The notes below the pieces were generated by a model. The model did not search any database. It saw only the letters and a program-made list of their open reading frames with translations, and was not told where the DNA came from. A stretch of 11,141 bases of DNA from a virus (taxonomy: Duplodnaviria; Heunggongvirae; Uroviricota; Caudoviricetes). The stretch lies in the IMG/VR virus record IMGVR_UViG_2529293240_000017; one strand, given 5' to 3'. Positions 5,016 to 5,733 of this stretch are shown here, one piece after another (positions within the stretch are counted from its first letter, which is position 1; every line of letters begins with the position of its first letter). The translations under genes and the position numbers were made by a program.

Positions 5016-5369
5016 CTACCCCAGATGAGTAATCCGAAGTTCATCCATACCACAGGTCCTGGCTATTCTGTTGTACTCCTGAACAAGAGCAAATAATTCT
5101 GAATTAGCAACCATGAACTCATCGCAAACCCTCTGTATAGCATCACTATTCAGAATAATAACGTCTCTTCCCGAAAGACGATCAGGAGTACAGAACAAAA
5201 CTGTCAAACGGCTGAAGGCCTTTGCTCGTGCTGCATTGACTATATCAATACGCTGCCTAAGGATGAAACACCCCGACGCCTCATCAATATTCACTCTACC
5301 CACACCATATGAATGATAAATACTTAATGCTGAAAAAACCATTAGACCGTATAACAAATACTCAATCAA
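5016..5369 (-). CDS. hypothetical cargo (moron) protein, 117 aa from a TTG start (108 aa from the ATG at 5342), hydrophobic N-terminus
   Basis: Only sizeable ORF in the AT-rich slot on the late-operon strand. 6 of 11 Arg codons are AGA/AGG and 3 of 11 Ile codons are ATA. No family recognised. Confidence 0.4.
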   Translation of the reverse strand: MIEYLLYGLMVFSALSIYHSYGVGRVNIDEASGCFILRQRIDIVNAARAKAFSRLTVLFCTPDRLSGRDVIILNSDAIQRVCDEFMVANSELFALVQEYNRIARTCGMDELRITHLG

Positions 5370-5479
5370 TACTTAACAGAACTTTTATTTTTGACAAATA
5401 TATAATATTTTCAACAATATCCTGAGCCAGGTATATTTCAGTATAAGGCTCTGCCGGAAGGAATCTGGAAGAATGAATA

Positions 5480-5556
5480 TGGCGCGCTGTACTGGATTCG
5501 AACCAGTGACCGATTGCTTAGAAGGCAATTGCTCTGTCCGGCTGAGCTAACAACGC
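5480..5556 (-). tRNA. tRNA-Arg (anticodon UCU)
   Basis: Manual fold: acceptor GCGTTGT/ACAGCGC, D-stem GCTC/GAGC, anticodon stem ATTGC/GCAAT with loop CTTCTAA, T-arm ACTGG-TTCGAAT-CCAGT, encoded CCA. Confidence 0.85.
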
Positions 5557-5569
5557 TGAATACCGATAA

Positions 5570-5650
5570 TGGACCGCCATCGGGGACCCGCCCCCCGCAC
5601 CAACAACCCTGTTATCGTGTCGTCTGCTCTTCCTGATAAGCTAATGGCGG
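5570..5650 (-). pseudogene. degenerate tRNA-like element (Arg-tRNA-like relic)
   Basis: Acceptor-like pairing CCGCCAT/ATGGCGG, D-arm TTAGCTTATCAGGAAGAGCA, a T-stem CGGGG/CCCCG and terminal CCA are present. No canonical anticodon stem-loop, and the T-loop is GGCGGGT instead of TTCGAAT. Confidence 0.4.
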
Positions 5651-5657
5651 TTTGTGA

Positions 5658-5733
5658 TGGTGGCCCTTGCTGGATTTGAACCAGCGACCTGGCGATTATG
5701 AGTCGCTCGCTCTCACCACTGAGCTAAAGGGCC
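5658..5733 (-). tRNA. tRNA with anticodon CAU, ileX/ileZ-like (tRNA-Ile2, lysidine-modified); tRNA-Met not excluded
   Basis: Manual fold: acceptor GGCCCTT/AAGGGCC, D-arm GCTC-AGTGGTGA-GAGC, anticodon loop CTCATAA, T-arm GCTGG-TTCAAAT-CCAGC, CCA. Close to E. coli ileX as recalled. Confidence 0.8.

Follow-up and report, generated by a model that had tools for sequence, protein, structure and literature searches.

Rare arginine and isoleucine codons in a small lambdoid prophage gene next to an ileZ/argO-type tRNA pair probably follow from base composition

The DNA analyzed here (the window) is a stretch of 11,141 nucleotides from virus record IMGVR_UViG_2529293240_000017, and the part under study is the late region of a lambdoid prophage, which is read from the minus strand. 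Its features are collected in Table 1. The 1.8 kb surrounding the central ORF are 99.5% identical to many E. coli chromosomes, and a 1.06-kb query (4840-5900) is 98.9% identical to phage mEp460. After the gene for the late antiterminator Q comes an intrinsic terminator, which is tR'-like and likely the target of Q antitermination; a terminator between Q and the tRNAs is the lambdoid late-operon architecture, in which the place taken by the tRNAs belongs to the Q-antiterminated late transcript. There follow a promoter-like site whose sequence is mostly kept in the alignment to Stx2 phages, a tRNA with anticodon CAU, a 101-nt interval, tRNA-Arg(UCU), and an ORF of 117 codons (5369-5016, TTG start). 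The consensus scan found 7 promoter-like sites in the region against 4.9 ± 1.9 in shuffles, which is no excess. No terminator was predicted between tRNA-Arg(UCU) and the ORF, and the DUF3927 gene begins 35 nt downstream of the 92-codon gene with which the ORF ends. Q and its terminator flank the tRNA cassette on one side, and the lysis genes (DUF1737 and holin S, at 3988-3298) follow on the other. An STnc100-like sRNA neighbors this slot for tRNAs and cargo. A 67-aa ORF on the opposite strand (5113-5316, +) had no family hits and was dismissed.

Table 1. Features of the prophage late region in the window, in the order of transcription of the minus strand.
Feature	Coordinates	Strand	Evidence or remark
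DUF968 gene	7082-8053	-	Late-regulatory region of lambdoid prophage
RusA gene	6713-7069	-	Lambdoid prophage
Late antiterminator Q gene	5910-6698	-	Pfam PF03589 Antiterm, E 6e-52; phrog_127 and phrog_25523
Intrinsic terminator, 3' of Q	5777-5796	-	Stem AACCCGC/GCGGGTT, then TTTTATT
Promoter-like site TTGCGA-17-TATTAT	5743-5771	-	Directly 5' of the ileZ-type tRNA; consensus scan, 9/12 matches
tRNA(CAU), ileX/ileZ type (tRNA-Ile2)	5658-5733	-	ARAGORN; Rfam tRNA model, 72.5 bits
Decayed argN (anticodon UCG) remnant, 101 nt	5557-5657	-	Aligned to argN of AP012540
tRNA-Arg(UCU), argO type	5480-5556	-	ARAGORN; Rfam tRNA model, 68 bits
Candidate promoter-like site	5387-5414	-	9/12 consensus matches
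N-terminal extension of the 117-aa ORF, 25 codons	5295-5369	-	Probably untranslated leader
92-codon gene, GTG start, TAG stop	5016-5294	-	phrog_2873; predicted two-helix hairpin
DUF3927 small protein (TciB-like) gene	4849-4980	-	PF13064, E 6e-26; phrog_1470
Terminator, nearest one downstream of the 92-codon gene	4603-4624	-	
IraM-like gene	4233-4568	Opposite strand	NF007393, 162 bits
DUF1737 gene	3785-3988	-	
P21-type holin S gene		-	Interrupted at ~3298 by IS600/IS2

The two tRNA genes have close counterparts in Stx phages. The tRNA(CAU) is identical at 76 of 76 positions to ileZ of the Stx2 phage Stx2a_WGPS8 (AP012540) and at 68 of 76 to ileX of K-12; by eye, the differences from ileX in the acceptor stem (6:67) and the anticodon stem preserve the base pairs, and the equivalent gene in a 99.5%-identical E. 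coli locus is annotated as tRNA-Ile by PGAP. A tRNA-Ile2(CAU) reads AUA once its C34 has been converted to lysidine by the host enzyme TilS. The tRNA-Arg(UCU) shows one mismatch over 77 nt to Stx2-phage argO, and a tRNA of this kind decodes AGA and, via wobble, AGG. The interval between the two tRNAs aligns to argN of AP012540 with its central part disrupted, and both ARAGORN and the Rfam tRNA model pass it over; of 74 related IMG/VR loci, 2 have an intact argN. Judged from the alignment, the third Stx-phage tRNA persists in these 101 nt as a decayed copy. The ileZ-argN-argO cassette of AP012540 occupies the same slot as the tRNAs of the window, after Q and its terminator and before accessory cargo. 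The 305-nt tRNA block shares 88% identity with Stx2 phages and 92% with phage phiP27, in which a two-tRNA form of the cassette is annotated, as found in the window. Two differences set the window apart from the Stx phages: the middle tRNA is decayed here and intact there, and the cargo is a 92-aa protein here and stxAB there, while other genes occupy the slot elsewhere. Phage 933W carries the three-tRNA cassette as well, and the claim about Stx-phage tRNAs reportedly goes back to Plunkett in 1999 and Schmidt in 1997. Within the library searched, nothing was found on ileZ/argO or on 933W together with rare codons, and a search on TciA/TciB returned unrelated papers only. The first-pass annotation had placed a tRNA-Arg(UCU) and an ileX-like tRNA(CAU) upstream of the ORF and had likened their match to its codons to that described for Stx phages; the tRNA part is correct, and the comparison with Stx phages is supported in that the tRNAs are an ileZ/argO pair in the same slot downstream of Q.

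By its distribution among sequenced genomes, the tRNA cassette is a module separate from the gene, common to Stx phages and phiP27. The 1.8-kb region containing the tRNAs is matched in 3347 complete E. coli genomes and the gene in 1314; of the 292 phage-collection records hit by the tRNA-containing query, mEp460 is the only one to have the ORF too. The gene shares with the morons of lambdoid phages a low GC content, presence or absence among related phages, and a slot that holds stx elsewhere. The moron concept is that of the Hendrix/Juhala definition, and the slot in question is the one between Q and the lysis genes. Of the promoter and terminator that a moron would have for itself, the candidates here are the promoter-like site at 5414-5387 and, as the nearest downstream terminator, that at 4624-4603.

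We then recounted the codons. The 117-aa ORF contains three AGA, three AGG, three CGT, one CGA, and one CGG among its arginine codons and seven ATT, one ATC, and three ATA among its isoleucine codons, exactly the hand count of the first-pass annotation (AGA/AGG 6 of 11, ATA 3 of 11); the 92-codon reading has AGR (AGA or AGG) at 5 of 10 and ATA at 3 of 9. The 117-aa ORF is clearly enriched over the host core CDS (45 CDS, 14,121 codons): AGR makes up 55% of its arginine codons versus 1.9% (p = 2e-8) and ATA 27% of its isoleucine codons versus 4.3% (p = 0.01). Compared with 20 other annotated CDS of the same prophage type (AGR 20%, ATA 22%), the ORF is marginally higher in AGR (p = 0.014, uncorrected) and not higher in ATA (p = 0.47), and compared with the prophage CDS below 48% GC (AGR 34%, ATA 35%) it does not differ in either (p = 0.19 and 0.79). 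The ORF's own base frequencies lead one to expect 45% AGR and 33% ATA, and its non-Arg/Ile codons alone 38% and 29%; against both composition nulls there is no excess of AGR or ATA (p = 0.2-0.75). When the 354 nt of 5016-5369 are read in all six frames, AGR ranges from 25 to 57% and ATA from 23 to 67%, stop-filled frames included. The GC content of the ORF is 41-44% versus 49-54% for its neighbors Q, RusA, and DUF968. We concluded that the AGR/ATA enrichment is real relative to the host but is a property of AT-rich DNA, and that the tRNA-codon match at the ORF is ordinary. Since base composition and all reading frames give the same enrichment, codon content is uninformative on whether the ORF is a gene, and the earlier argument that the match speaks for a real, expressed gene is not supported.

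A match specific to the cargo had also been implied, and here the whole prophage speaks against it, being about 10-fold richer in AGR and about 5-fold richer in ATA than the host. One alternative to a composition effect is co-adaptation, in which translation of the gene is dependent on, or timed by, the phage tRNA-Arg(UCU) and tRNA-Ile2, as proposed for stx; we consider this unlikely. The tRNAs do directly precede the gene on its own strand, no terminator is predicted before it, and the linkage in the window lineage is tight (tRNA(CAU) in 74 of 74 related loci, Arg(UCU) in 72 of 74), but these loci represent a single module of 98-99% identity and count as one event. The stx2A gene downstream of the same cassette has AGR at 8 of 24 and ATA at 15 of 20 positions by direct count, and its density of AGA, AGG, and ATA codons (7.2%) is level with that of the ORF (7.7%); the marginal AGR excess over the prophage average points the same way. 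Against this stand the composition expectation, which the enrichment equals, and the presence of the same enrichment in non-coding frames. A comparison of three related E. coli lineages bears on the same question. In the P0024 lineage the 5 kb upstream contain no tRNA (19 of 19 loci), with ATA at 3 of 8 and AGR at 2 of 8; in the P0016 lineage 7 of 8 loci have ileZ and argN(UCG) at a distance of 2.2 kb upstream, with ATA at 1 of 7 and AGR at 2 of 9. ATA does not track ileZ (3 of 9 and 1 of 7 with the tRNA, 3 of 8 with no tRNA at all), and a sister lineage that keeps ATA at this level with no tRNA within 5 kb does not support dependence of the gene on the tRNAs. The AGR share is highest in the argO-linked window lineage (5 of 10 versus 2 of 9 and 2 of 8 in the lineages without argO, three lineages only); this fits co-adaptation, but it is one evolutionary event and cannot be told apart from chance. 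The placement of the codons within the gene argues in the same direction as composition. Four arginines are invariant in the family (core positions 15, 23, 29, and 39); their codons are CGT, CGA, CGT, and CGT in the window and CGN in all lineages. Four of the five AGR codons of the window fall at variable columns, which hold L, Q/K, N/K, or G/S in relatives. The AGR codons look like single-base changes at unconstrained sites, for example K, S, or G to R. One of the three ATA codons is itself polymorphic, with a synonymous change to ATT in 9 of 80 copies.

Whether the ORF encodes a protein has to be decided on other grounds, and the first of these is its family. The ORF protein matches phrog_2873 (E 2.2e-69, residues 10-117 against profile positions 1-108) and is a member of it; relatives at 33-63% identity match the same profile as well (E 2e-69 to 2e-17 for the whole set, the ORF protein included), among them those of E. 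coli lambdoid prophages with 57-63% protein identity. The profile is 108 positions long, and only positions 17-108 are conserved across lineages. The 117-aa extent given by the first-pass annotation is not confirmed: conservation is limited to the last 92 codons, beginning at the GTG of 5294, and an NCBI third-party (TPA) annotation lists a relative of 92 aa. Shine-Dalgarno-like pairing amounts to -5.3 kcal/mol at GTG 5294, -2.9 at ATG 5342, and -0.4 at TTG 5369. The start codon is probably GTG 5294 (92 aa) and not TTG 5369. It is doubtful that the window lineage makes the full 117-aa protein from TTG or a 108-aa protein from ATG 5342, of which the hydrophobic N-terminal part YLLYGLMVFSALSIY would give a membrane-anchored variant. 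The window and most of the near-identical copies have an open frame from 5369 on, and the phrog_2873 profile aligns from residue 10; on the other side, the 25-codon extension is unconserved, being out of frame and carrying a stop in the L006 lineage, its 75 nt have accumulated five nonsynonymous variants, one synonymous variant, and one frameshift among 80 near-identical copies, and there is almost no SD pairing at TTG or ATG.

For the 92 codons the evidence of coding is strong. Three E. coli lineages with about 30% DNA divergence hold them gapless, with start and stop shared, and differ at 44 third codon positions versus 24 first and 22 second positions; dN/dS is 0.22-0.32, which marks purifying selection. 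The alternative frames of the same alignment contain 2-10 stops, with dN/dS ratios near 1 in all but one, the wobble-sharing antisense frame, whose 0.21 is expected from the shared position but which has 2 stops. Among 80 near-identical IMG/VR copies (the alignment-based scan for related loci recovers near-identical copies only) the core has no stop or frameshift, and its six synonymous and five nonsynonymous variants give a pN/pS of about 0.25. Searches also brought up distant relatives (20-43% identity) from Citrobacter, Salmonella, Serratia, Morganella, and Xenorhabdus; every relative is 91-110 aa long and named 'hypothetical'. The neighborhood of the family is recurrent: an AraC-like regulator precedes it, and a TerB-like gene, DUF3927, and a holin come after it. 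In L013 and L015, too, the DUF3927 gene is found on the downstream side. We concluded that the ORF is a real gene on grounds independent of its codon content; the first-pass annotation was right about the gene, as dN/dS, the gapless frame, phrog_2873, synteny, and the predicted fold show, and wrong about the codon argument that led to it. It is highly improbable that the ORF is no gene but an open frame that arose by chance in AT-rich intergenic sequence, left unannotated by PGAP and RAST for that reason. In favor of this view, the MS6198 locus (99.5% identical) and phage mEp460 lack a CDS annotation here, none of the 38 listed matches in complete E. coli genomes (of 1172 at ≥99%) has a RefSeq CDS at the gene, the GTG start has a modest SD (34% of background windows are at or below -4 kcal/mol), and no Pfam or NCBIfam family matches. 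Against it stand the gapless frame with its low dN/dS across three diverged lineages, relatives of 91-110 aa down to 20-40% identity in other genera, the conserved neighbors, the lack of disrupted copies (0 of 80), and a confident structure model.

That model, from AlphaFold2, shows the 92-aa protein as a two-helix hairpin with a pLDDT of 87.6 and helices at residues 3-33 and 50-81. The ORF protein belongs to no Pfam, NCBIfam, or PADLOC family (a Pfam RHIM match at E 0.09 was rejected as noise), a sequence-profile search of the PDB gave nothing below E 0.1, and Foldseek against the PDB had no match at E <= 0.001, finding generic helical hairpins only (EmrA, prefoldin, designed bundles). As the fold matches are generic, no function can be drawn from them. 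Inspection of the 92-aa sequence by eye showed neither a signal peptide nor a transmembrane segment. As a low-confidence guess, the product could be a small cytoplasmic coiled-coil protein that binds a partner, and it may form one accessory module with the TerB-like and DUF3927 proteins. A more far-reaching proposal is that the phrog_2873 hairpin is a functional lambdoid-prophage accessory factor missed by standard annotation in roughly one in four complete E. coli genomes, the translation of which would in this lineage be gated by the co-transcribed ileZ/argO so that it is made only when the late operon fires, and which may act with TerB-like/DUF3927 on lysis timing, host takeover, or superinfection exclusion; we regard this as a long shot.

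The reading we favor with fair confidence is that the locus is a piece of a lambdoid late operon containing a real, AT-rich gene with no codon bias beyond its composition, and that the tRNAs reflect a general phage-versus-host effect and no cargo-specific co-adaptation. This piece runs from Q through the tR'-like terminator, the ileZ-type tRNA-Ile2(CAU), the decayed argN, and the argO-type tRNA-Arg(UCU) to the phrog_2873 gene and DUF3927. The gene would be acquired AT-rich DNA, and AGA/AGG and ATA would be frequent in it because it is AT-rich, with no bias beyond base composition. The tRNAs would be transcribed by Q-dependent read-through, perhaps also from a promoter of their own (the candidate site at 5771-5743), and together with lysidine modification they would raise the decoding capacity for AUA, AGA, and AGG. 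They would help this gene as they would any AT-rich phage gene, because these codons are 5-10 times commoner prophage-wide than in the host core, and most likely the tRNAs serve the phage generally. Co-transcription, tRNA function in vivo, and a translational benefit are inferred.

This reading agrees with the general idea of compensation by phage tRNAs. In the passage of PMC7946995 that cites it, phage tRNAs are said to compensate for codon-usage differences between phage and host (Bailly-Bechet et al., 2007), and in phage SfI the same idea has been applied to tRNA-Thr(UGU) and ACA, with the tRNA downstream of Q (PMC3636060). The tRNAs of SfI, Sf6, and P21 all lie downstream of Q, as in the window. 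Like the codon-compensation systems, the prophage uses the codons read by its tRNAs 5-10 times more often than the host core CDS; the difference is that, after correction for composition, the adjacent gene here shows no excess of its own. The components are already known, namely phrog_2873, the ileZ/argO cassette, and codon compensation by phage tRNAs. Taken as a whole, the first-pass annotation stands in its counts, its real gene, and its Stx-type tRNAs, and gives way in its reasoning, its gene boundaries, and the specificity that it implied.

The analysis provides a map of the Q-tRNA-cargo slot in this type of prophage, with its decayed argN and the STnc100-like sRNA next to it. The 92-codon gene, which is unannotated by RefSeq in the near-identical genomes examined, merits a CDS call with a GTG start. 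For prophage annotation in general the locus carries a caution: AT-rich acquired DNA that is rich in AGA, AGG, and ATA next to phage tRNAs is the default, and is not evidence of coding or of co-adaptation.

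The 92-codon gene that follows the tRNA cassette is present in 1314 out of 5426 complete E. coli genomes, CFT073 among them, and its identity is 99% or higher in 1172. No RefSeq/PGAP feature was found under the gene in 38 sampled matches of at least 99% identity, and it is likewise absent from the RAST annotation of phage mEp460. Its more diverged relatives carry a hypothetical protein annotation. At two loci with such relatives (L013, 5392-6038; L015, 5489-6063) the next genes encode, in this order, a TerB-like protein (phrog_632, 'tellurite resistance'), DUF3927, and a holin; the window differs from both in that the TerB-like gene is missing. 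One branch of the family (P0036) is found on Rep3 plasmids, where the gene adjoins K88-type fimbrial genes and has a tRNA-Thr(UGU) 0.6 kb upstream.

Downstream of DUF3927 we observed a strong match to Rfam RF02076 (sRNA family STnc100; 129.7 bits, gathering score 47) that ends at an intrinsic terminator. What PGAP annotates at this site in an E. coli genome of 99.5% identity is instead a pseudogene on the opposite strand, labelled as a partial 'hypothetical protein'. The neighboring IraM-like gene belongs to an anti-adaptor family whose members stabilise RpoS. With a GC content of 34.5%, the gene is very AT-rich, and it uses ATA for 6 of its 13 isoleucines, a larger share than in the 117-aa ORF that contains the 92-codon gene; since it runs against the late operon, it lies off the tRNA transcript. 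Judging by eye, the prophage early region presumably holds a small toxin ORF of the Hok type (MKQQKAMLIALIVICLTVIV...), together with a toxin-antitoxin pair resembling RelE/RelB.

Features of the window and their positions
Feature	Position	Strand	Remark
IS2 and IS600 insertions	1-3297 and 9868-11141		
IS2 copies	1181-2409 and 9868-11141	- and +	mutually inverted
IraM-like anti-adaptor gene	4233-4568	+	NF007393, 162 bits; phrog_4407
STnc100 match	4600-4783	-	
Intrinsic terminator	4624-4603		
92-codon gene	5016-5294	-	
Decayed argN, Stx-phage tRNA-Arg(UCG)	5557-5657	-	between ileZ and argO
Promoter-like TTGCGA-17-TATTAT	5743-5771	-	between tR'-like terminator and ileZ
Putative Hok-type toxin ORF	8867-9022	-	
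Putative RelE/RelB-like pair	9094-9620	-	

The holin S gene is cut off at its 3' end by IS600 (at ~3298), and E. coli ECMA0423 (CP178302.1), with 99.5% identity across 2497-5967, shares this IS600/holin junction. Because of this loss, the prophage in the window is defective for lysis.

Within the cassette, the argN remnant receives no tRNA call in the window, and argN is intact in only 2 of 74 related IMG/VR loci; in phage phiP27 the same block is likewise annotated with two tRNAs only. The promoter-like site upstream of ileZ is mostly kept in alignment with an Stx2 phage. This site could allow expression of the tRNAs, and by read-through of the 92-codon gene, independently of the late antiterminator Q.
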